From a virus, in UHGV virus genome UHGV-0138297: a stretch of 23,481 nucleotides of DNA, one strand, 5' to 3'. Below, one piece after another: positions 1 to 23,481 of the stretch. The translations under genes were made by a program, and so were the position numbers. How positions within the stretch are numbered: position 1 is the first letter of the stretch; every line of letters starts with the position of its first letter. A model generated the notes under the pieces. The model saw nothing but the letters and a program-made list of their open reading frames with translations. It made no database searches and was not told the DNA's origin.

Positions 1-193
1 CATAGTGAAAAGTTGCGAAGGCATCGATACGATCACATTGGCTGTAATGTCTGTCATTTAATTTGCTCCAGATACAAGGAATCGCCGCAGCATGGCTACG
101 GTGAGTATTTGTTTGCTTTTTGCACTACACTTTTTGTGTAGTGCTATCTCTCAAGGCCATAGCCGCTGAGTAGCTACGGTGAATTTTGGGCAT

Positions 194-216
194 AAAAAAA
201 CCCAGCCGAAGCTGGG
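194..216 (-). terminator. Rho-independent terminator (second of a tandem pair downstream of the P63C gene)
   Basis: Plus strand has A-run 194-200, then stem cccagc (201-206), loop cgaa, stem gctggg (211-216). Read on the minus strand this is a GC hairpin followed by a U7 tract. Confidence 0.6.
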
Positions 217-266
217 TCGTTGCGTTGGTTATCTGTCAGTAGTTATGTACTGGCTGAAGGATTTGT

Positions 267-289
267 ACAAAAACCCACCTGACGGTGGG
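267..289 (-). terminator. Rho-independent terminator immediately 3' of the P63C gene
   Basis: Plus strand acaaaaa (267-273), stem cccacc (274-279), loop tgac, stem ggtggg (284-289). On the minus strand the hairpin is followed by UUUUUGU. It lies 9 nt past the stop at 298. Confidence 0.65.
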
Positions 290-297
290 TTTCATAA

Positions 298-1266
298 TTA
301 GATTTCTGGTTTCATTCTTCCAAAAACCTTTTCTATTCCTTTTTCGTATTCTTCTCTTGTCTCACTCATCGCTGCGACCCCAAGAAGCTTACCGATATGC
401 TGACGCAAAGCCTTGACACCAATTTCAGAAAGGAACAGATGCAACTTATCAGATTGTTTTCCGTTCTCGTCTCGGCTGGCTCGAATCTGTTCAAGGATTT
501 TACCTTTACTCTTTGCTAGCGGGGTGTATATCTGCATGTTGGTTAGCTGCCCAAAACGAATAGGCCGTCCTTTCTCTGGCCTATTCAGGCCGTACAGTCG
601 ATACCACTCCTCGTATAGCTCATCTGGAAATTCCTTTTCATATTGACGAGCTTCTTCACGAACAAACGCTTTGAACTCGTCAATGACAGCCTGAACTTCT
701 GGACGATAACCAGCAAGCGCATACGCAACCCCCTTAATTCCCGCCTTAGCGGAGGCATTAATAAGTCTCTGTGCTGCGGCGGCTGCCTTTAACCGTGATT
801 GTGGTAGATCGTCATTATCTTTGGCTTCTATTAGTGCCCTACCAATATCAACAATTGCTGTAATGTCATAACCTAACGCTTGATGAACGGTTTTAGACTT
901 CGAAGTAAGTTGAAATTTATAGGGATTTTCCATTTTTCGCTGCAATTCTAGATCTCGGTATTTGCTCATATACTGAGCGCCAAGTAGTTGATCTAAATCC
1001 CTGGCATGTTCACCAATCCCTAGCAACTGAGATAATCCAGTTTTCGTAACAACGACAGTTTTCGACTCGTCATCCAGTACATAACATTCAGCATCAATGC
1101 CAAAATCATCTAAAAAGTTACCACGATGAGTTGCCCTGAGAATCTTACTTTTCCATCTTGCAGCAGCTGCTTTCTTTGCTATTTCAGAACGCTGCTCTTT
1201 AGTCAGCGACTTTGCGCGAGCGATCCCGCCCTTAGCTTTCCCTTCACTACTTTTCTTTTCTGTCAT
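298..1266 (-). CDS. P63C-domain phage protein (function unknown) with a basic N-terminal segment; accessory (moron) gene
   Basis: 322-aa ORF. SD AAGGTG lies 8 nt upstream of the ATG at 1266. The N-terminal 45 residues are Lys/Arg/Ala-rich (KAKGGIARAKSLTKEQRSEIAKKAAAARWKSK). The P63C family assignment is from memory of prophage annotations, not from a search. The gene has its own promoter and terminators. Confidence 0.75.
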   Translation of the reverse strand: MTEKKSSEGKAKGGIARAKSLTKEQRSEIAKKAAAARWKSKILRATHRGNFLDDFGIDAECYVLDDESKTVVVTKTGLSQLLGIGEHARDLDQLLGAQYMSKYRDLELQRKMENPYKFQLTSKSKTVHQALGYDITAIVDIGRALIEAKDNDDLPQSRLKAAAAAQRLINASAKAGIKGVAYALAGYRPEVQAVIDEFKAFVREEARQYEKEFPDELYEEWYRLYGLNRPEKGRPIRFGQLTNMQIYTPLAKSKGKILEQIRASRDENGKQSDKLHLFLSEIGVKALRQHIGKLLGVAAMSETREEYEKGIEKVFGRMKPEI

Positions 1267-13861: not shown

Positions 13862-15340
13862 TCAACCTACACCACAAGGAATTGAGTAACTGGAATAGTC
13901 GGGTTGCGAAGCCGACTCCGGGCAATGCATACACATCATCAGCGCATCAGCCAGGTTAGGAGATGGAATACCGAGCTTCTGCTTCATTTCGACTTTGGTC
14001 ATCAGCTCAAGCTTTCCGTTACCGTTGAATTTGCGTTGGATCTGCGTTAGCTCTGCGAATAGCTTGTTGAGGATATTCTCTCCAATAGCCTCTTTGTCAA
14101 AGCTAAGCATTTCATCAGGGTCGGCGTATTCACCATGCTCTACCGCCCGGTATGTTCGATAAAGCCTGTCAGCCAGCGTGTAATAGAACTGCGCTCGCTT
14201 GTTTCGGAATACATCTCCAATAGTGCGGACGTTATCACCCTGCACAACTTCATCAGTCCATGCCCCAGCCTGATATGGAGCATCTTCGTCGAATGGCGAT
14301 TCACTACCTTTAAACATTGTTACGGTGACTTTCTTTCCACTGAAATAGTCTGTTATCTGTCGACGAAGCCCTGCTCCAAGTCCATCTCCATCAAACAGGA
14401 AATGATCAACATCATCGATTACCGCCAATGAAGATGCCCAATCAGCACCCTCGTTTATATCCATGAGCAGCCCTTCACATACGCGCTTAACAACTGATCC
14501 ATGTCGCACTGCATATCCTTTGGCATCTGGGCCGGTGTCTGACGGGTCATGCGCTGCAATCACTGCACCTTTAGCTTTCCATCCGAGCTTAATGTGGGCG
14601 TCTGTTGCAGCCTCTAACCATGCAAACTTGATAATAGCCATTTCTGATGCCCCCACCGGTTCACCAAGATACACATGCCGATAAAGCTCGTGATTAGCCT
14701 TCTTCATAATCTCCATATCCCTGCGGAGAGTTTCCGGGAACCATGGATTAGCTGTGTAGTTGATCTGCTTGACGATGCAGTAGCGATTACCGTTTTCGTC
14801 ATAGTCGGGGTATATGCGATTCGTAACAAAGCGCTGATGTGTATCGCTGAGTCTGTTCTTCGGGTTGTATGCAACCCATATTTCCGACTCAACCACTCGA
14901 CCATACTCAGCGCTGTAGAACTCTTTACGTACCGTTGGGATAAGCGTTTCCCATGAGTCCTTTGATACGTTTTCTGCTTCCTCTACAAGGGCGGCATCGA
15001 AGTTTGCGTAACCTTTGATATTTTCCACGTTAAGGCGCAGGAAGTCGAAACTGATACGTCCGCCGCTATTGGCAAATATCTCTGTCTTATTGATAGTCAC
15101 CAGTGAGTGGAGGTTTCGGCGGTTAATCTCTTCAACAATTTCCGCATAGCATGATTCCTTGATGGACTTCATGTACTCACGAAAACAGATAAGCTTCCAT
15201 CCGTGATAGATGACGTTATTGAGGAGGATTGTTATGAACGTTCGCGTCTTGGCGGAACCTCGCCCGCCATAAGCTACCTTGAATCTGGCTGGCTGCAGGT
15301 ATTCCTCAAACGCTTCAGGAATGCTGCATTGCTCTGTCAT
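13862..15340 (-). CDS. Terminase large subunit
   Basis: 492 aa with Walker A motif GGRGSAKT near the N-terminus. Overlaps terS by 4 nt. Confidence 0.93.
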   Translation of the reverse strand: MTEQCSIPEAFEEYLQPARFKVAYGGRGSAKTRTFITILLNNVIYHGWKLICFREYMKSIKESCYAEIVEEINRRNLHSLVTINKTEIFANSGGRISFDFLRLNVENIKGYANFDAALVEEAENVSKDSWETLIPTVRKEFYSAEYGRVVESEIWVAYNPKNRLSDTHQRFVTNRIYPDYDENGNRYCIVKQINYTANPWFPETLRRDMEIMKKANHELYRHVYLGEPVGASEMAIIKFAWLEAATDAHIKLGWKAKGAVIAAHDPSDTGPDAKGYAVRHGSVVKRVCEGLLMDINEGADWASSLAVIDDVDHFLFDGDGLGAGLRRQITDYFSGKKVTVTMFKGSESPFDEDAPYQAGAWTDEVVQGDNVRTIGDVFRNKRAQFYYTLADRLYRTYRAVEHGEYADPDEMLSFDKEAIGENILNKLFAELTQIQRKFNGNGKLELMTKVEMKQKLGIPSPNLADALMMCMHCPESASQPDYSSYSIPCGVG

Positions 15341-16128: not shown

Positions 16129-16500
16129 CTACTGTTCGCTTAGCTTCTGCTTCAGCAAGTAACCTTCAAGCATCCAGATTTTGTTTACAGCATTCTGCCG
16201 GGCAATCTTCCGACCAATTTCTGCATCAAAATTTTCCGGACTTGCACAGGCACTCTCTCCGGTGACGGTGAAGCCGTTGCGCAGCACCAGGACGCAGAAC
16301 GTCAGCAGAGAAAGTGATTCGTGCGGCTGGTAGTTTACCTCTCCGCCAGTATGTTTCGCTTTTATGGCTTTGCCAAAGGCACCATCCTCTGCTGTGAAAT
16401 ATGCCTCCTGAGCAATAATTCCTTCGATATGGTCTGGCGTAACGCGCGGTGCCGTTTTGCCTTTCTCAACGATTTCTTTTTCGATTTGCTGGTCGTTCAT
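16129..16500 (-). CDS. Phage protein, probably N4 Gp49 / Sf6 gp66 family
   Basis: 123-aa ORF upstream of terS. The family call is from memory of the sequence pattern and is not certain. Confidence 0.65.
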   Translation of the reverse strand: MNDQQIEKEIVEKGKTAPRVTPDHIEGIIAQEAYFTAEDGAFGKAIKAKHTGGEVNYQPHESLSLLTFCVLVLRNGFTVTGESACASPENFDAEIGRKIARQNAVNKIWMLEGYLLKQKLSEQ

Positions 16501-16725
16501 AATTATGACCCTGTAGAGTGGTTGCTTGATTAGGATGTCTTTCCATCAGTCCGCCACCACAAAGAATCTTTTTTGCCATAAGGCAGGAGGTTCATCTTTC
16601 AGTGGCTGCCAGTGTTATTTCCCCACTTACTGGCTTGGGTTGTTTCGCGGTACTTCCGTAACTGGTTGCCCAGAATAAATTCCGGTTTCATTATCAAGCC
16701 CACCAGTAGATGGGCTTTGGAATGG

Positions 16726-16989
16726 CTACTTCACTTTTGCTTTTGCTTCCGCTCGCTTACGCCGGCGCTCTTCTTTCCTCTCGGCTTTTGCCATGTCCAT
16801 GAATGCCTGCATGATCGAGTTCCGCATCATGTAGCTAACAAAGTGATGATTGACACAGCCGTTTAGGCGCAGCTGCTCGCCAAACTCATCCACCGAGGCC
16901 AATGCTTCCATCATGCCCTTCTCGCCTTTCATGAACTCTGAGAAGTCGCGCCCCGCTCTGGAGGCGCATTCAATGACACGATCACTCAT
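16726..16989 (-). CDS. Hypothetical protein with basic C-terminal tail
   Basis: 87-aa ORF overlapping the KilA-N gene stop (ATGA). Lys/Arg/Glu-rich C-terminus. Confidence 0.5.
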   Translation of the reverse strand: MSDRVIECASRAGRDFSEFMKGEKGMMEALASVDEFGEQLRLNGCVNHHFVSYMMRNSIMQAFMDMAKAERKEERRRKRAEAKAKVK

Positions 16990-17483
16990 CCCGGAAGCCC
17001 GGGGATCGTAATCTGCAGCTGGTTAGCCAGGGAGTTAATCTCAGCGACCAACACTGGCTTCGTATAGCGCCATGCCGCCAGCCCTTGTCCGCAGAAACTC
17101 GCCATGTCTTTCTTCTGGTCAAACTCATGACATTTCATGTTGAGCTGCGCACTTAAGCTGTTGCGATGCTGAAGTTCTCCGGTGAAGTAGTCATCGAGGA
17201 CTTTATAGGCCGCGTACTTGAACCCGGGGTTTAACCAAGCCGCATAATCGTAAGCAACAAACTTCCCGCCATATGTTCCACCGTGTACACCGCGCTCAGT
17301 AAAAACCACAGATTCGTGGTTTTTCTCCAGCTCGGCTAAGAACTCTTTGGTCTGCTTGTTTCGCAGGTAGTGGTAAGGCGATTCAGATTCACTTTTACCA
17401 CTGGCTTTCCACATATCAGTGAGGCAGATCATGCCATCTTCACCGATACGAATTGGTTGATTGAAGAGGGTTAATGATTTCAT
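16986..17483 (-). CDS. KilA-N domain protein
   Basis: 165 aa. The N-terminal region (IRIGEDGMICLTDMWKASGK...) resembles the KilA-N DNA-binding domain. Confidence 0.75.
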   Translation of the reverse strand: MKSLTLFNQPIRIGEDGMICLTDMWKASGKSESESPYHYLRNKQTKEFLAELEKNHESVVFTERGVHGGTYGGKFVAYDYAAWLNPGFKYAAYKVLDDYFTGELQHRNSLSAQLNMKCHEFDQKKDMASFCGQGLAAWRYTKPVLVAEINSLANQLQITIPGLPG

Positions 17484-17598
17484 AGCGTGTACCTACTCTT
17501 TGAAATGAACCTTTGCCGCACAGGAAACCAGCCCACCGAGGCTCGCCAGCACTAACTGGTATCCTCAAAGGCCCATTCCAAAGGGGCAGGTTCGGTGT

Positions 17599-17652
17599 AA
17601 AAAACATGCGTTGCGGTACGCATTTATTGGAAAAAGCCCCGCATCGCGAGGC
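17599..17652 (-). terminator. Two tandem rho-independent terminators downstream of the lysis cassette
   Basis: On the minus strand: hairpin GCCUCGC-GAU-GCGGGGC followed by UUUUU (plus 17631-17652), and hairpin AUGCGU-ACCGCA-ACGCAU followed by GUUUUUU (plus 17599-17623). Confidence 0.55.
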
Positions 17653-17684
17653 TCATTAAATGGACTTTGTGATTTGCAAAAAAA

Positions 17685-18152
17685 TTATTTCAGGCATTGC
17701 GTCCTGATGTATTCCTGCAGGTAGTTAACCTGCGCGGTTATCTTGTCGATTCCACTTCGTAGACGGTAATAATTGAGTTCAGCATCTGCTGTAAGTCTTG
17801 GGCTTTCTCCATCGCCCATGCTGCTGGCTCCGGTCGTTGACTTTGCACAGGTGGCGGCGACTTGCAGCCGCTTACGGCCAGCAATGACATCGCTATGCAG
17901 ACGCTCAATGGTTTCTTTCGCATCAGCCAGTTCTCCGGTGTATTTGGCATCCAGTGCAGCGACATCACGCTGGCGGGTCTGCATGTCTTTAATGGTGGCG
18001 GTCGCCAGGAGGAGTTTCTCAGTGGCCTTATCGCGCTGGTCTCTGTAAGTGATGGCGTTGTCGCGGTAGTGGTTCACGAAGAAAGCCAGTGCGCCGATTA
18101 ACGCCAGCACCAGCAACTGCAGCCAGTAACGCTTAACCAGTGCGCTAATCAT
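17685..18152 (-). CDS. Rz: i-spanin Rz
   Basis: 155 aa, closely similar to lambda Rz as I recall it ([16 protein letters not shown].....[21 protein letters not shown]). N-terminal TM segment. ATGA overlap with the lysozyme gene. Confidence 0.9.
17738..17923 (-). CDS. Rz1: o-spanin Rz1 (lipoprotein), embedded in the +1 frame of Rz
   Basis: Starts at the internal Met ([20 protein letters not shown]...), has a lipobox (VSGC) and a Pro-rich mature region. It lies entirely inside Rz. Confidence 0.78.
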
Positions 18153-18598
18153 GACAGGAACAGAGCTCGCTCTGCCTTGCGGCGATTCGTGAGCCCCGGC
18201 ATCACCTTTCCGCCTGATTTATTCCAGCGCAGAAATTCATCTGCCGCGCCTTTTATATCGCCAGCATTCAGCTTTTTCAGCAGTGTAGATGTGGAAAGAG
18301 CACGCGACCCAACGTTGTAAGCGAACGACACCAGTGCGTCGAACTGGCCTTGTGTCAGCTTCACCCTGACAACTTTCAGCACGTCATTCTCATAACCAAC
18401 AAGCCCTGTTTTCAGAAGCCTGTCAGCGGTTTGCTGGTCGATAGTCATACCGCGCTTTACTGGCTTTCCGTCAACCGGATGGGTCCAGCCATAGCCGATG
18501 GTCCACGGCGCATCTCCCGTTCCGGGGTCTGGGTAAGCAGTCAGCCGACAACCTTCAAATTTTTTTATCAGAGCAATTCCGTCAGGACTGGTTTGCAT
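18149..18598 (-). CDS. Phage lysozyme (T4/P22 gp19-type, GH24)
   Basis: From the internal Met ([24 protein letters not shown]...) the protein matches the P22 gp19 pattern and ends ...[18 protein letters not shown] lies 6 nt upstream. The ATG sits inside the holin 3' end. The ORF-track start at 18670 is an upstream extension. Confidence 0.9.
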
Positions 18599-18899
18599 CG
18601 TCAACTCCCGCCTTTTTTGCTGCAAGTTTTTTAATAAGATTGCCGATCGAATCGGTGCCGATGTATCCAATAAAGACGCTGGCTATGTAGGCGAGGTTGC
18701 TGCTCAGGCCGATAAAGTCCAGAAGGTCACGAACGAACCAGGCAATCATCGCGCACATCAGCGCATCAATTAGCGTTTTTGTTACCGCGCCGCCGTTATA
18801 GCGACCACGCAGATACGCCATGATAAAAGCCAGCATTGCACCAATACCCTGCTCCTTGGCGGCAAGTAGCGCAGCGATGAAATCTTGTTTGTATGGCAA
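18582..18899 (-). CDS. S: Class I holin, lambda S-like, probably TTG-initiated
   Basis: Sequence from ...[31 protein letters not shown]... to the C-terminus is near-identical to lambda S as I recall it. I place the start at TTG 18899 (SD GGAG 6 nt upstream, 10 nt after the HNH stop), which gives 105 aa. The alternative ATG at 18935 overlaps the HNH gene by 26 nt and adds a 12-residue Arg/Lys-rich extension. Confidence 0.85.
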
Positions 18900-18909
18900 T
18901 TTTTTCTCC

Positions 18910-19410
18910 CTACGCCTGGCACGCGAATTGACCATGATATTTCCCCCTAAACTCTGAGATTACCAACTCAGCAAGTTCGAGATCATCGAAGTAACCCAAC
19001 CAGATCTGCTTCTTATTTCTACTTCCGCAAACTCTCCATTTCCCATTCTTAACATCAAGCCTGACGCCCTTTATGGGATTCTTTCCTCCGGATGGTTTGC
19101 GTCTGTTATATTGATTTTCTGATTTGGTCGATAATCTGAGGTTTTTAATGCCATTGTTTAATGGGTTTCTATCTAAATGATCCACGTCCATTTCTGGCAT
19201 GCATCCATATACATACAACCAAGCCAGCCGATGCTCTTTATAGATTTTCCCATCTATACGTATTTGCCTGTAACCAGATCCATTAATCGTTCCAGCTCTT
19301 GAGCCAACTTTAATTCTGCGATTGCTGGATTTAACCCAAGTAAAAACCCCTGAAACAGGCTCATAGTGCATAAGGCTTTTCAGGACTTGCTGAGTGATTA
19401 CCATCTTCAT
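18910..19410 (-). CDS. HNH homing endonuclease with AP2-like DNA-binding domain
   Basis: 166 aa with an HNH motif region ([46 protein letters not shown]) and an AP2-like C-terminal segment ([28 protein letters not shown]). AT-rich relative to its neighbours. Start context is GAGGAGAGAGACT-ATGAAGATG. Confidence 0.88.
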
Positions 19411-19502
19411 AGTCTCTCTCCTCGCAATAGAAGCGGGAGCTGTGCGTTGTAGAGAAGCGCCTCACCCATTGCGTTTAAGGGGTAAGTGTTTAGCTGTATG
19501 GA

Positions 19503-19527
19503 TGGTCGCGAATAAAAAAGCCCACGG
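19503..19527 (-). terminator. Rho-independent terminator in the late leader, upstream of the HNH gene
   Basis: On the minus strand: GCCCAC-CGCGCC-GUGGGC followed by UUUUUUAUU. Confidence 0.6.
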
Positions 19528-19792
19528 CGCGGTGGGCAATAGAGGGTAGTGCGTTGAGCTTTTGCTCTTATGGTCCTGGTAGGTATTTGGTGTGTGGTGA
19601 CCGGTGCTGTGTTTTCCGGCATGTAAATGAACTACCCGTCGTCGCCATGGTGAGCCTTTACCTCACCATCTAGCTGATAAGTTAGCGCATCAGCCTGCGC
19701 ATTCACCACAACGATAATTGCACTGCGCCTGTTTCGGTTAGCGTAACGGGATTAACCGGTCACCCCAATGCAATTATCTGTTGTGCAGATAC

Positions 19793-19821
19793 AAAAAAGC
19801 CCCGAGCTATTAACTCAGGGC
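19793..19821 (-). terminator. tR'-like terminator ending a short (~57 nt) late leader RNA
   Basis: On the minus strand: hairpin GCCCUGAG-UUAAUAG-CUCGGGGC followed by UUUUUUGU. The flanking sequence (...TTTTTTGTATCTGCACAACAG...) resembles the sequence after lambda tR' as I recall it. Confidence 0.7.
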
Positions 19822-19857
19822 TTTATTTAACGAGTGCATTTATCCATCGTTGAGTCA

Positions 19858-19886
19858 AATTTACCCAACTTTATTCAAAAAGTCAA
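19858..19886 (-). promoter_or_regulatory. Late promoter pR' (lambda type), presumably containing the Q binding element
   Basis: Minus strand reads TTGACT-17 nt-TAAATT, then TGACTCA and ACGATGG; TTGACT is at plus 19881-19886 and TAAATT at 19858-19863. This is almost the same as lambda pR' as I remember it. It lies directly downstream of Q, with the predicted +1 near 19850. Confidence 0.8.
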
Positions 19887-19928
19887 TATCATGCCGTTAA
19901 TATGTTGCCATCCGTGGAAATCATGCTG

Positions 19929-20552
19929 CTAACGTGTGACCGCATTCAAAATGTTGTCTGCGATTGACTCTTCTTTGTGGCATTGCACCACCAGAGCGTC
20001 ATACAGTGGCTTAACAGTGCGTGACCAGGTGGGTTGAGTAAGGTTTGGGATTAGCATCGTTACAGCGCGATATGCGGCGCTTGCTGGCATTCTTGAATAG
20101 CCGACACCTTTGCATCTTCCGCATTCTTTCTCAACAACTCTCCCCCACAGCTCTGTTTTTGATATATCAACCGCACGGCCTGTACCGTGGCAATCTCTGC
20201 ATCTTGCCCCCGGCGTCGCGGCACTACGGCAATAATCCGCATAAGCGAATGTTGCGAGCACTTGCAGTACCTTTGCCTTAGTATTTCCTTCGAGCTTTGC
20301 CACACCACGGTATTTCCCCGATACCTTGTGTGCAAATTGCATCAGATAGTTGATAGCCTTTTGTTTGTCGTTCTGGCTGAGTTCGTGCTTACCGCAGAAT
20401 GCAGCCATACCGAATCCGGCTTGTGATTGCGCCATCCCCATAGCAGCCATCACATCAGTACCGGAAAGAGAGTCAGAAGCCGTGGCCCGTGGTGAGTCGC
20501 TCATCATCGGGCTTTTTGGCGAATGAAATTTAGCTACGCTTTCGAGTCTCAT
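19929..20552 (-). CDS. Q: Late antiterminator Q (lambda type)
   Basis: 207 aa, essentially matching lambda Q as I recall it (MRLESVAKFHSPKSPMMSDSPRATASDS...), including the zinc-binding Cys cluster CRDCHGTGR...CGRCKG. Confidence 0.93.
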   Translation of the reverse strand: MRLESVAKFHSPKSPMMSDSPRATASDSLSGTDVMAAMGMAQSQAGFGMAAFCGKHELSQNDKQKAINYLMQFAHKVSGKYRGVAKLEGNTKAKVLQVLATFAYADYCRSAATPGARCRDCHGTGRAVDISKTELWGRVVEKECGRCKGVGYSRMPASAAYRAVTMLIPNLTQPTWSRTVKPLYDALVVQCHKEESIADNILNAVTR

Positions 20553-20737
20553 GGCCTTCCCCTTTTTCCCTGTTTGACCATCAGGACGCCGTTAACTATT
20601 ACGTGACGCTCGCCTTTGCTGTCTCGGTTGTACTTGAGCACTGTTCCTCTTGCGCAGGAAAGCATCCTCGCCACTTCGGTCTGATTGCCTCGTGTCTGGA
20701 TAAGAAGCTCTGGTATCGTTTGAATTGTGGCGTTCAT
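20549..20737 (-). CDS. ninH: NinH-like small DNA-binding protein
   Basis: 62 aa. The motif TIPE/DML....GNQTEVAR.L.CSRGTV.KY......G....IVN.VLMV matches lambda NinH as I recall it. ATGA overlap with Q. Confidence 0.78.
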   Translation of the reverse strand: MNATIQTIPELLIQTRGNQTEVARMLSCARGTVLKYNRDSKGERHVIVNGVLMVKQGKRGRP

Positions 20738-21096
20738 ACGTTCTCCAGTTCGGTGATTTTTATTCCAAGCCGTCCGCCTGGTACTTTCACACCACGAATT
20801 ACGCGAATGTCATCGAATTGCTCGTCGTCTTCCGCAAATCCGGCGTGGATAAGGGAGTCGAGTAAACCTTTCAGGATGTTGTCGAGGTCGCGGCGGCGGG
20901 AGTCTGGAACGTCTGCGATGACTTTGATACGGAGTCGTGATTTGGTGAAAATGTCTAACTTGAGTTGGCGAATGATTTGCTGAACGTCTTTTCGGTATTT
21001 CTGGCCTTTATCGCTGATGTAGTATTGGCTTCCCCGTCTTCTCCAGTAGGTATTCAGCGACGGCGGGTATGGAAGCACAAACTGATATTCGTTCAT
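20734..21096 (-). CDS. rusA: Holliday-junction resolvase RusA
   Basis: 120 aa with the RusA pattern (PPS.N.Y.R.......S.....YR..V......L.....K....I.....PD.RRRDLDN..K...D.L..AGF..DD.Q..D.R.V.....GGRL.I.ITE). Confidence 0.88.
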   Translation of the reverse strand: MNEYQFVLPYPPSLNTYWRRRGSQYYISDKGQKYRKDVQQIIRQLKLDIFTKSRLRIKVIADVPDSRRRDLDNILKGLLDSLIHAGFAEDDEQFDDIRVIRGVKVPGGRLGIKITELENV

Positions 21097-21383
21097 GGTT
21101 TAATCTTCCCCTCCTTCAGCAGTATCGCCTGCGTCCTGATCACGCCTTCGAGGTGGTAAAGTCTGGCGTCTTTGTTGTCGAGGTTATGGGTGCGTCGGTC
21201 GATCTCCGCGTGGCAGTCGCTACAAGCCCATGCGCCGATCAGGTCGTCAGGTTTCATTCCCGTTCCGCAAATTCCAGCCATCCGGTAATGTGCCAGAACT
21301 GTAGTTTCAGGATTGCCATTGCATACGCCGTAAATACGTACCTGACATTCTCTGCCGCGTGCTTCTTTGCGTAGATTGGCCAT
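21093..21383 (-). CDS. YbcO-like (DUF1364) putative nuclease
   Basis: 96 aa with conserved Cys/His residues. It sits directly upstream of rusA, as ybcO does in the DLP12-type nin region. Confidence 0.7.
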   Translation of the reverse strand: MANLRKEARGRECQVRIYGVCNGNPETTVLAHYRMAGICGTGMKPDDLIGAWACSDCHAEIDRRTHNLDNKDARLYHLEGVIRTQAILLKEGKIKP

Positions 21384-22105
21384 TAAGCAGCCTCCCCTGT
21401 TACTTTCAGCATTCCGTTATCGAGCAGCTTTCTGGTCAGCCACTGTTGACCACGCCCGGTGATTTTTGTGGTGAACGATATCTGTATTCCGTGATTTGTG
21501 TTGACTGCTGTTTCTTTCACTGTGAAATAGCCGCGCTCCATATATTCCTGCATTGGCACATTGCGCCGGGAACCTGAAGCAATAAGGATTTTGTGATCGC
21601 GCATCCACGCAAACAGTTTGTTTGGACCAATACCGACAACCTTTGCAAAGTTTCCAATCAAAATTCCGCTGGCTTCGCCAACGCGATCGGCAAACTCAAC
21701 TTTAGGTGCGGCAATTGCGAGCTGGTTTTCCAGTTGCATTTTCTGCTCAGCAAGATCAGCAGCAAGGCGCAACGCTTCTGGTAGCGTTTTGGGGATATTA
21801 ACCGCAGCTTCTTCAAGCTCTCGCCAACGGTCAACAAGACGAGCGGTGAATTCCGGCGACAACTGAGCGACGACAATAATGCTGTCTCGCTTACCTTGTT
21901 CGCCCTCAAAAACGTAAGCCTCTACGCCACGAAGTAATCCTAAGTTATTGATTTTTTCGAAAACCACCATTGGGGGATTTCGGATCACACCTCGAGCCGC
22001 CAGTCGTTCAATAGATTGTTTCACCTTGTCATGACGACTTCCCACCAACTCAGCGATTTCAATGCTTGTCATTTTGATGGCATTGCCATTTATTAACTCA
22101 TTCAT
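21383..22105 (-). CDS. Phage antirepressor, Rha N-terminal domain plus Ant/KilAC-type C-terminal domain
   Basis: 240 aa. The N-terminus (ITMTSIEIAELVGSRHDKVKQSIERL) is Rha-like and the C-terminal half is antirepressor-like. Confidence 0.8.
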   Translation of the reverse strand: MNELINGNAIKMTSIEIAELVGSRHDKVKQSIERLAARGVIRNPPMVVFEKINNLGLLRGVEAYVFEGEQGKRDSIIVVAQLSPEFTARLVDRWRELEEAAVNIPKTLPEALRLAADLAEQKMQLENQLAIAAPKVEFADRVGEASGILIGNFAKVVGIGPNKLFAWMRDHKILIASGSRRNVPMQEYMERGYFTVKETAVNTNHGIQISFTTKITGRGQQWLTRKLLDNGMLKVTGEAA

Positions 22106-22274
22106 CGTCTTCTTCCTCGTACATTGAGCTATTCGGATCGCTCATCAGCTCTGCGCAGCAATCGGAGCACACGTGAACTTCCAGCACATGCAGCTTCTGA
22201 CCGCAGTTAGCGCACGTTAAAGCCCGCTCGACGCTTTCTTTCTGGTATTGAAGGGATTGGGATGGGCTAAGCAT
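22098..22274 (-). CDS. Small zinc-ribbon protein (hypothetical), below the ORF-track length cutoff
   Basis: 58-codon ORF (MLSPSQSLQYQKESVERALTCANCGQKLHVLEVHVCSDCCAELMSDPNSSMYEEEDDE) with a CxxC...CxxCC motif and an acidic tail. Its stop overlaps the antirepressor start by 8 nt and its start overlaps the upstream gene's stop. There is no clear SD, so translational coupling would be needed. Confidence 0.4.
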   Translation of the reverse strand: MLSPSQSLQYQKESVERALTCANCGQKLHVLEVHVCSDCCAELMSDPNSSMYEEEDDE

Positions 22275-22677
22275 TATTGGCGTCCTGCATCATGAGAAAG
22301 ACAATCATGGCGGCGCGGAGTGGATTAGACTGATACTGAATTCCGAACTTTTGACAAGATGAAATCGCATCACACCACTCGTGATATTCGCCTTCATATC
22401 TCGTATCGGTACTATCAAACATTATGCTGATTTTGTTTTCAGTGATAATTGGCCACGCATATTCAGGATTATTGCAAGGATTGAAGCAATTTCCGTTTGA
22501 AGAACGGAAGCCATTAATATCCCTTTTTTGCGTCTGCCAAATAGGACCTCTTTCGTCAGTGGGGATCTCAGAATCGAAATCTGCTTCGTCATCAGGTATG
22601 AAGAAATGCTCCTCCATATCTAAAGCCTCACATACTCGCTTGTTAATTTCAAAATCACTTAACTGTGAATAATCCAT
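22267..22677 (-). CDS. Hypothetical AT-rich nin-region protein
   Basis: 136 aa from ATG 22677 (MDYSQLSDFEINKRV...), with SD GAGGAA 6 nt upstream. Acidic and Cys-containing. Visibly AT-richer than its neighbours. The ORF-track start at 22719 is a GTG extension overlapping NinE. Confidence 0.65.
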   Translation of the reverse strand: MDYSQLSDFEINKRVCEALDMEEHFFIPDDEADFDSEIPTDERGPIWQTQKRDINGFRSSNGNCFNPCNNPEYAWPIITENKISIMFDSTDTRYEGEYHEWCDAISSCQKFGIQYQSNPLRAAMIVFLMMQDANNA

Positions 22678-22679
22678 TG

Positions 22680-22856
22680 TCATTTCCTCGCACGATGCCT
22701 TAGCCACCGGATATCCCACAGGTGAGCCGTGTAGTTGAAGGTTTTTACGTCAGATTCTTTTGGGATTGGCTTGCGTTTATTTCTGGAGCGTTTCGTTGGA
22801 AGGTATTTGCAGTTTTCGCAGATTATGTCGGTGATACTTCGTCGCTGTCGTCTCAT
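22680..22856 (-). CDS. ninE: NinE-like protein
   Basis: 58 aa from the internal ATG ([58 protein letters not shown]), with SD GGAGGT upstream. Resembles lambdoid NinE as I recall it. Confidence 0.75.
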
Positions 22857-23197
22857 TCGTACCTCCTGTCGGTAAATCTGACACCCTGACCAATAGCCCA
22901 TGCTGTTGTGTACTCGATCAGACTTGCCATACGCTTCACGCTCATCTGCGCGCTGCTTTCGCGAATGTTGACGTATTCACCTTCAAGGCCGGGCAAAACA
23001 TCAGCTTCCTGCTTTGTTGCCACTGCATGACCGCTTATCAACAAAACCTTCCATTGTTCTGGTTTTAACCATTTGCCGCACCATTGAACCTGACTTGCGA
23101 TATCCGCCAGCATCGCGTGAAATTTTGCGTTCTGGTCAAGGTTGCGCTTGTAGTCAGTAATGCGGATGGTGATTGGCTTGTCTTTATCGAGTGGTGT
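22853..23197 (-). pseudogene. ninB: ninB-like recombination gene, 5'-truncated by the IS insertion
   Basis: The open frame without a start codon reads ...PLDKDKPITIRITDYKRNLDQNAKFHAMLADIASQVQWCGKWL..., which matches lambda NinB from about residue 25 onward as I recall it. The frame runs upstream into the IS terminus with no N-terminal region. Confidence 0.7.
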
Positions 23198-23481
23198 TGA
23201 CCTGCCCCCAGGATTAGATACAACCGTCAGTTAGTAAGGTCGGTTTGTTTACCTTCACATTTTCCATTTCGCCACCGTGCTGCAAACTCTGATGGCGTCT
23301 GATAATTCAGTGCTGAATGTGGACGACACTCGTTATAATCCTGCCGCCAGTCATTAATGATTTTCCTTGCGTGAACGATATCGCTGAACCAGTGCTCATT
23401 CAGGCATTCATCGCGAAATCGTCCGTTAAAGCTCTCAATAAATCCGTTCTGCGTTGGCTTGCCCGGCTGGATTAAGCGCAA
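23198..23481 (-). mobile_element. IS3-family insertion sequence, right end only; continues beyond the window
   Basis: A terminal sequence beginning TGACCTGCCCCCAGG... at about 23198 is adjacent to the transposase 3' end. The boundary is inferred from where NinB similarity stops and a TG...-type end begins. Confidence 0.75.
23227..23481 (-). CDS. IS3-family transposase OrfB, C-terminal fragment (5' end outside the window)
   Basis: The translation (...[24 protein letters not shown]...[18 protein letters not shown]...) has the conserved C-terminal motifs of IS3-family DDE transposases. Confidence 0.85.

Follow-up and report, generated by a model that had tools for sequence, protein, structure and literature searches.

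The window analysed here, by which we mean the whole stretch of 23,481 bp, corresponds to the entire SPAdes contig NODE_152_length_23481 of ENA assembly ERZ1744876, a short-read metagenome, and both of its ends are therefore contig ends. Every gene in it lies on the minus strand and none of it is host DNA. Read from high to low coordinates it starts with a fragment of an IS element, followed by a truncated ninB, ninE, ninX and ninF. Next come a Rha/KilAC antirepressor-like gene (roi-like), a ybcO-like gene, rusA, ninH and the antiterminator gene Q, as assigned by Pfam. Past Q lie a pR'-like promoter and a strong terminator, then an HNH gene and the lysis genes. The window further holds a complete P22-type morphogenesis block, which encodes the small and large terminase subunits, portal, scaffold and coat proteins, gp4/gp10/gp26-like proteins and gp7/gp20/gp16-like ejection proteins, and after which a P63C-domain gene is found.

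The nearest sequenced phages are CUS-3, phiKp_30, phiv205-1, Kapi1 and HK620, all of Lederbergvirus type. CUS-3, HK620 and other P22-like Escherichia coli phages (Lederbergvirus) have the same late and nin gene order as the window. Phages of the CUS-3/HK620 type match it at 92-95% identity over 42-60% of its length and have structural proteins of equal length, but their ninB is uninterrupted. The window lineage also represents another mosaic than these phages, with an HNH gene before the holin gene and a P63C gene directly before the tailspike gene. Its late 15.3 kb share 99.83% identity with a prophage that adjoins ybhB/bioA in the genome of an E. coli isolate (L050). The features that bear on the interruption of ninB and on transcription toward Q are the following.

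23198..23481, minus strand: IS right-end fragment, 284 nt, IS positions 938-1221 of 1221 bp, ending at the contig end
23227..23481, minus strand: C-terminal 84 codons of OrfB plus TGA stop (rve_3, E = 1.3e-31), in the same direction as ninB
23198..23226, minus strand: right inverted repeat (IRR) of the IS1222-like element, reading TGACCTGCCCCCAGGATTAGATACAACCG on the plus strand
23194..23197, minus strand: right copy of the target-site duplication, ACAC, ninB nt 67-70, from junction comparison with contig L048
22853..23197, minus strand: ninB 3' remnant, codons 23-136 plus stop, without a 5' start codon
22853..23113, minus strand: internal ATG ORF, 86 aa, NinB residues 51-136, the sole conventional ORF remaining in the ninB frame
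22680..22856, minus strand: ninE, 58 aa (Pfam NinE, E = 1.5e-43, residues 16-73 of a longer ORF)
19929..20552, minus strand: antiterminator Q gene, 207 aa, intact (Pfam Antiterm, E = 1.2e-57)
19886-19858: pR'-like promoter
19824-19796: strong terminator; like the promoter, just after Q

The interrupted ninB and the IS end

The ninB stop codon is located at 22853-22855 and overlaps the ATG of ninE (ATGA), the first intact gene downstream of the insertion. From this stop codon the frame remains open to 23197 without a start, and the first in-frame ATG, GTG or TTG is the ATG at 23113. No obvious Shine-Dalgarno sequence was seen upstream of this ATG when the sequence was read by eye; the 86-aa internal ORF that begins there was called by gene callers both for the source contig and for the L016 family. 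Pfam NinB matches the remnant over profile positions 24-131 of 131 (E = 1.1e-47, 161.5 bits with a cut-off of 23.8), and the remnant equals nt 67-411 of the intact 136-aa ninB present in contigs L039, L053 and L056.

The break point was mapped by means of megablast, using window positions 22600-23481 as query against 5,426 complete E. coli genomes. The ninX-ninE-ninB matches, found in 2,743 E. coli records, all stop at query base 600, which is window position 23199, and not one record among the 5,426 genomes reached a query coverage of at least 80%. Homology to ninB thus extends as far as 23199 and homology to the IS from 23198 onward, an overlap of two bases; this CA/TG is common to the IS tip and the target by chance. 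The closest relative at this locus is contig L039 (ERZ841627 NODE_54), which is IS-free, has an intact 136-aa ninB and is 99.97% identical to window positions 16267-23199. Compared with L039, the insertion point lies after ninB nt 66. The initial annotation was thus right that the start of ninB has been displaced, but the displaced part comprises 22 codons (66 nt) rather than about 25. Only two mismatches separate the window from L039 in 6.9 kb, both in ninB codon 31 (V to I), some 25 nt from the junction, and because of this near-identity to an IS-free sequence the insertion looks recent.

The 284-nt fragment beyond the junction matches full IS copies at 100% identity, both in E. coli and on 2,202 plasmids, most of them from Klebsiella. 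Chance cannot account for a perfect match of this length whose end coincides exactly with an IS terminus. On the plus strand, window positions 23198-23209 read TGACCTGCCCCC, an IS407-type terminus beginning with TG. The OrfB stop codon follows at 23227-23229, and the coding part at 23230-23481 specifies the last 84 residues of OrfB, the transposase with its integrase-core domain. These results sustain what had been read from the sequence initially: an IS3-family element interrupts ninB; the ninB frame runs without a start codon into the IS terminus; and the 3' end of OrfB is found just past the junction. A look-up of the 84-aa OrfB fragment in the protein collection returned only unrelated truncated IS copies.

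A full copy of the element, located at positions 2501-3721 of L001 (E. coli D4), measures 1221 bp. It encodes an OrfA of 87 aa (HTH_Tnp_1) and an OrfB of 277 aa (HTH_21, rve, rve_3), and carries a PGAP annotation of a "programmed frameshift" that joins the two. Its left end is TGACCTGCTCCCC and its right end GGGGGCAGGTCA, and the ends share TGACCTGC[C/T]CCC. An automated repeat search of the full IS reported no inverted repeat, because the repeats are imperfect and contain an indel; when aligned by hand and by script, IRR pairs imperfectly with the left inverted repeat (IRL) TGACCTGCTCCCCGTTGATTAG of the L001 copy. The end of orfA in this copy reads GGG CGA AAG TAC TGA at IS position 323.

IS1222 belongs to the IS407 group of the IS3 family and was first described in Enterobacter agglomerans; its length we take to be 1221 bp. 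Given its IS407-type ends, its OrfA/OrfB frameshift and its G_CGA_AAG site, the element in the window, a member of the IS3 family, IS407 group, looks like IS1222 or a very near relative, and we refer to it as IS1222-like. It may be an isoform of IS1222 or a close relative that bears another name; PGAP labels the copies as "IS3 family transposase" only. The two are alike in their TGACCTGCCCCC termini, the -1 frameshift at G_CGA_AAG, the presumed length of 1221 bp and a 4-bp duplication, and the window element, like IS1222, is widespread in Klebsiella, Enterobacter and E. coli plasmids. The IS1222 transposase is made by way of an unusual -1 frameshift at the site G_CGA_AAG (PMC5009743). IS407A has repeats TGACCTGCCCCCT and makes 4-bp target duplications, and the first 12 nt of the window terminus are those of the IS407A terminus (PMC2877748 Table 2). 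The window element thus resembles IS407A of Burkholderia mallei/pseudomallei in the first 12 terminal nucleotides, the 4-bp duplication and the two-ORF organisation, although IS407A comes from another host clade; the sequence comparison with it covered the termini.

The partner junction in a second assembly

The window stops where the assembler failed to pass a repeated element, the IS, and the contig end is therefore an assembly break and not a biological end. The initial annotation placed the remainder of the IS to the left. This needs correction, since in window coordinates it lies to the right of 23481. The missing left junction was predicted beforehand from the IS407-group rule as ninB nt 1-70, ending in CCTCGCAACAC, followed by TGACCTGCTCCCC. 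A gapped pattern scan of metagenome contigs gave exactly one match, on contig L048 (OIEW01000070.1, 38,359 bp). There ATGAAGCAAACAATCTTCCTCCGAACTAAGCAACAACAGCAAGCCGCAATAAATGCCATCCTCGCAACAC is directly followed by TGACCTGCTCCCCGTTGATTAG, that is ninB nt 1-70 abut IRL, and the contig ends 301 nt into the IS. The far junction of such an insertion can hence be predicted from the duplication length of the IS group and recovered from another public assembly.

At the right junction in the window GGGGGCAGGTCA is directly followed by ACACCACTCG, and at the left junction in L048 CCTCGCAACAC is directly followed by TGACCTGCTCCCC. ACAC is present at both junctions, which come from different assemblies, and only once in the empty sites of L053, L056 and L039. 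The IS fragments of the window and of L048 do not overlap each other; each is 100% identical to the same full copy. The ninB alleles also correspond. Among the intact alleles collected, I31, as found in the window, occurs only together with the T9/N18 N-terminus (L012, L033 and L034), alleles with S9/T18 have V31, and L048 carries T9/N18. Joining the 5' part from L048 to the 3' part from the window yields an intact 136-aa E. coli NinB, EEW1716813.1, which is present on 10 contigs. The IS-free contigs L053 and L056 have the same upstream genes as L048 and are colinear across the reconstructed site at 99.4-99.5% identity. From site, orientation, duplication and allele linkage across the two assemblies we infer that both junctions belong to one insertion allele. 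L048 thus supplies all that the initial annotation had suggested looking for, namely the far end of the IS, the duplicated target and the missing 5' part of ninB.

The right junction was recovered once more in an independent assembly, on contig L016 (ERZ1744866 NODE_669), which breaks off after 70 nt of the IS; the insertion allele is shared by a few metagenome assemblies. The exact 40-mer across the right junction is absent from GTDB species representatives and IMG/VR, the left-junction pattern is absent from IMG/VR and GTDB, and neither junction occurs in the 5,426 complete E. coli genomes. The protein collection contained no left-junction peptide as predicted for either N-terminal allele with a duplication of 1, 2, 4 or 5 bp, probably since such short ORFs are not called as genes. 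A 110-aa "partial NinB" (P0012) was considered as a second insertion nearby and rejected: its contigs end at codon 27 in several assemblies without any IS sequence, and these ends more likely represent a mosaic or repeat boundary.

Taken together, the locus is with high probability the product of a simple insertion of a 1221-bp IS3-family element of the IS407 group into ninB codon 23 of a P22-like, CUS-3/HK620-type temperate E. coli phage. Transposition would have been a simple cut-and-paste or copy-in event, with the element ending up co-oriented with ninB and early rightward transcription. Four base pairs of the target (ACAC) would have been duplicated and no flanking phage DNA lost.

NinB and transcription toward Q

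The insertion splits ninB into a 5' piece of 23 codons that continues into 12 IS-encoded codons, and a 3' piece that has no start codon. The reconstructed NinB aligns to lambda Orf/NinB (PDB 1PC6) over residues 2-133 (E = 3.5e-21), and in this alignment the displaced 22 residues correspond to lambda Orf residues 3-24. These residues lie in the N-terminal RAGNYA beta1-alpha1-beta2 unit, which in Orf is part of the dimer interface and of the predicted DNA-binding face (PMC4118853). With both this N-terminal segment and the start codon lost, NinB is almost certainly inactivated, which bears out the initial suggestion that its function is probably gone. With the protein the phage would lose a recombination mediator that places RecA or Beta on ssDNA covered by SSB; for RecA, NinB can do this in place of RecFOR (PMC3224144).

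The window gene shares with lambda Orf/NinB (1PC6) its membership of PF05772 and its place in the nin region, ninB-ninE-ninX-ninF...rusA-ninH-Q. It differs in being split after codon 22, with the RAGNYA segment separated from the remainder and no protein expected. Judged from its sequence, it is a pseudogene and not a functional member of PF05772, since the start codon is absent and the first 22 codons lie across the IS. The appropriate annotation is that of a ninB pseudogene interrupted by an IS1222-like element. Lambda can grow lytically without the nin region, as known from the nin5 deletion, and the loss of NinB is therefore probably tolerated. Independent ninB lesions occur in other prophages, with a TAG at codon 3 in L013 and a stop at codon 44 in L018, and this recurrence would fit a gene that is under weak selection.

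The effect on the downstream genes depends on whether transcription passes the IS. The element is co-oriented with ninB, Q and early transcription, and Q itself is 100% identical to, and of equal length as, the Q of the IS-free L039. A consensus scan of both strands of the full IS and of the junction found no site resembling an intrinsic terminator. The only terminator candidate from the IS end down to Q is weak (21683-21667). The IS end showed no outward-facing site resembling a promoter. Upstream of the IS, directly after the primase-helicase gene, L048 has a tR2-like terminator at 1390-1366 with a 10-bp stem and a T run, which occupies the position of lambda tR2. Given this terminator upstream of the IS, polymerases arriving at ninB from pR have presumably undergone N-type antitermination. 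In 1974 Adhya, Gottesman and de Crombrugghe reportedly found that antiterminated complexes read through IS-borne and Rho-dependent stops. Transcription toward Q would probably run on through the IS, as the element has no intrinsic terminator and the arriving polymerases are likely antiterminated. That the IS cuts the transcript that feeds Q, conceivably by Rho-dependent polarity inside the element, is possible but disfavoured.

Alternative readings and the state of the phage

Two alternatives concern the structure of the insertion itself. The window stops inside the IS, so that the far side lies beyond the contig, and for the left junction another assembly was used. One could therefore envisage that the IS has mediated a rearrangement, for example by deleting adjacent DNA, by inversion between two of its copies or by forming a composite element, in which case the far side would not be the 5' part of ninB. 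This is very unlikely: the partner junction in L048 is exactly the one predicted, it overlaps by ACAC and its ninB belongs to the allele class that matches the window, an uninterrupted version of the joined gene is present on other contigs, and IS-free phages are colinear across the site. A short-read metagenome contig that ends in a repeat might also be an assembly chimera, in which phage sequence was wrongly joined to an IS from elsewhere in the metagenome. The break falls exactly at the IS terminus and has a reciprocal junction with a proper 4-bp duplication, and the identical junction on L016 ends 70 nt into the IS instead of 284 nt as in the window. This occurrence in an independent assembly with a different IS end point effectively rules out a chimera, to which we attach next to no credence. 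Accepting a simple insertion, one may ask whether it serves a function, either because transcripts that leave the IS and enter ninE...Q relieve part of the dependence of Q expression on N, or because loss of NinB was selected for. The orientation of the IS along the nin-Q operon, the lack of a convincing terminator in the IS or down to Q and the independent ninB lesions of L013 and L018 would fit such a role. It is nonetheless highly improbable, since the IS end has no outward promoter-like site, transposase promoters of the IS3 family are weak and dispensability explains recurrent loss of ninB equally well.

The alternative that had headed the initial annotation is that the IS marks a defective, decaying or domesticated prophage, in which it would be one of several lesions or would block Q, so that no phage is made. 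IS insertions are common in degraded prophages, ninB itself is disrupted and some parts of the phage lie outside the window. Recurrence of the allele in several short-read assemblies is moreover what would be expected of a clonally inherited, fixed prophage. Gene integrity was assessed over the 23.5-kb window and 5.3 kb of the 38-kb L048, the integrase, the immunity region and the tailspike being outside the window. Within this scope no second lesion was found in 23.2 kb of the window. The genes other than ninB have the lengths known from CUS-3 and related prophages and many are 100% identical, and the 5 kb upstream of the IS in L048 contain full-length cII, O, a 626-aa primase-helicase gene and small nin-proximal genes. 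Lesions elsewhere in the phage are possible. The recent origin of the insertion, with an IS-free near-twin (L039) at two mismatches in 6.9 kb, also argues against a decaying prophage, as do the presence of Q, the pR'-like promoter and the strong terminator, the IS without terminator-like sites, the dispensability of the nin region in lambda and the fact that a sequenced phage, mEp234, carries a related IS. We consequently do not follow the initial annotation on this point and regard a defective prophage as unlikely. The mere presence of an IS in a dispensable nin gene is no sufficient sign of prophage decay.

The IS1222-like element, the lambdoid ninB and this type of event are all already well known, and the importance of the simple insertion favoured here extends little beyond annotation. 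If the phage is viable, it adds one more temperate phage that carries an IS between hosts. It is conceivable, though improbable, that a viable phage acts as a vehicle that moves the IS1222-like element between Enterobacteriaceae, and/or that read-out from the IS past the tR2-like terminator gives partly N-independent Q expression. If true, read-out into the nin operon would be a natural analogue of lambda byp/nin5. Identical IS copies reside mostly on Klebsiella plasmids, an observation with which transport by a phage would agree.

As to the precedent, the lambdoid Escherichia phage mEp234 (PV340539.1), recorded with MG1655 as its host, has a full-length IS of 1221 bp with 96.5% identity to the window IS. 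It differs from the present case in that its backbone is of Hendrixvirinae and not P22-like, and in that the IS sits next to bet, in the accessory/recombination region of the early-left arm, and not in ninB. Because mEp234 carries such an element, carriage of this IS is compatible with a working phage. In the phage studied here the insertion would add 1,225 bp to a headful-packaged genome of about 40 kb, and with this addition the genome would stay within the range of related P22-like phages, which measure 38-46 kb.

Mosaic structure and lesions of ninB

By comparison with the intact alleles of L012, L033 and L034 and with that of the IS-free relative L039, ninB around the insertion site (window 23100-23197) is a mosaic joint: over codons 1-31 the window's allele is of the T9/N18/I31 class, whereas codons 32-136 and all downstream sequence are L039-like (S9/T18/V31 class). 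Separately, in several NCBI assemblies (L041-L047) contigs end at ninB codon 27, with a 110-aa "partial NinB" (P0012) as product. This suggests that a homology boundary recurs no more than a few codons away from the insertion.

Independent ninB lesions were found in further E. coli prophages, namely at L013 9850-10261, in L018 and at L014 9738-10261. L013 reads ATGAAATAG, with a stop at codon 3, and L018 has a stop at codon 44; in L014 the ORF of a rep-O fragment continues into a ninB remnant. Gene prediction gives one and the same internal ninB ORF, of 86 aa, at all three loci.

Upstream terminator and a related IS

Two further features were located outside the window:

L048 1366-1390, minus strand: tR2-like intrinsic terminator with a 10-bp stem and a T run
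L061 2148-3368: complete IS407-group element of 1221 bp, 96.5% identical to the window IS

The terminator, on the contig that carries the left IS junction, lies directly 3' of a 626-aa primase-helicase gene and upstream of the nin genes and the IS. L061 is the sequenced lambdoid phage mEp234 (PV340539.1), where the element has a small gene near int on one side and bet on the other. Since no exo gene is annotated at that locus, the insertion may have cost this phage a recombination gene too, by displacement or disruption.

Late control downstream of Q

The following features of the window are all on the minus strand:

19796-19886: late-control region, directly downstream of Q
19886-19858: promoter-like site TTGACT-17-TAAATT
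19824-19796: terminator after the promoter-like site, 13-bp stem and T run
19537-19520: second terminator downstream of Q
18910-19410: HNH-AP2 homing-endonuclease-like gene, 166 aa (HNH_3, E=8.6e-15)

The promoter-like site followed by a terminator after Q is the arrangement expected of pR'/tR', which appears intact. The HNH-AP2 gene has the Q/pR'-terminator region on one side and the holin on the other; among the fetched loci, it occurs only in the window lineage (source contig L015 and second assembly L016) and in L039.

Left window end and prophage surroundings

The left end of the window starts with the following:

1-297: left contig end, reaching 57 nt into the tailspike gene
298-1266, minus strand: P63C-domain protein, 322 aa

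Since the contig end falls 57 nt inside the tailspike gene, in its conserved head-binding N-terminus, it probably marks one more assembly break, at a boundary that is shared or variable. One neighbour of the P63C gene is the gene for a gp16-like ejection protein, the other that for the tailspike. Relatives like L021 have immI genes (mnt/arc/ant) after the P63C gene, whereas in the window and the near-identical E. coli prophage L050 the tailspike follows directly. The exact P63C protein is very common (605 blocks of the collection).

In L050, where the stretch corresponding to window 1-297 is 15002-15298, an acyltransferase gene (Pfam Acyl_transf_3) follows the tailspike. The flanking host genes beyond it, of families PBP (ybhB-like), Aminotran_3 (bioA-like) and Radical_SAM/BATS (bioB-like), are the lambda att neighbourhood.
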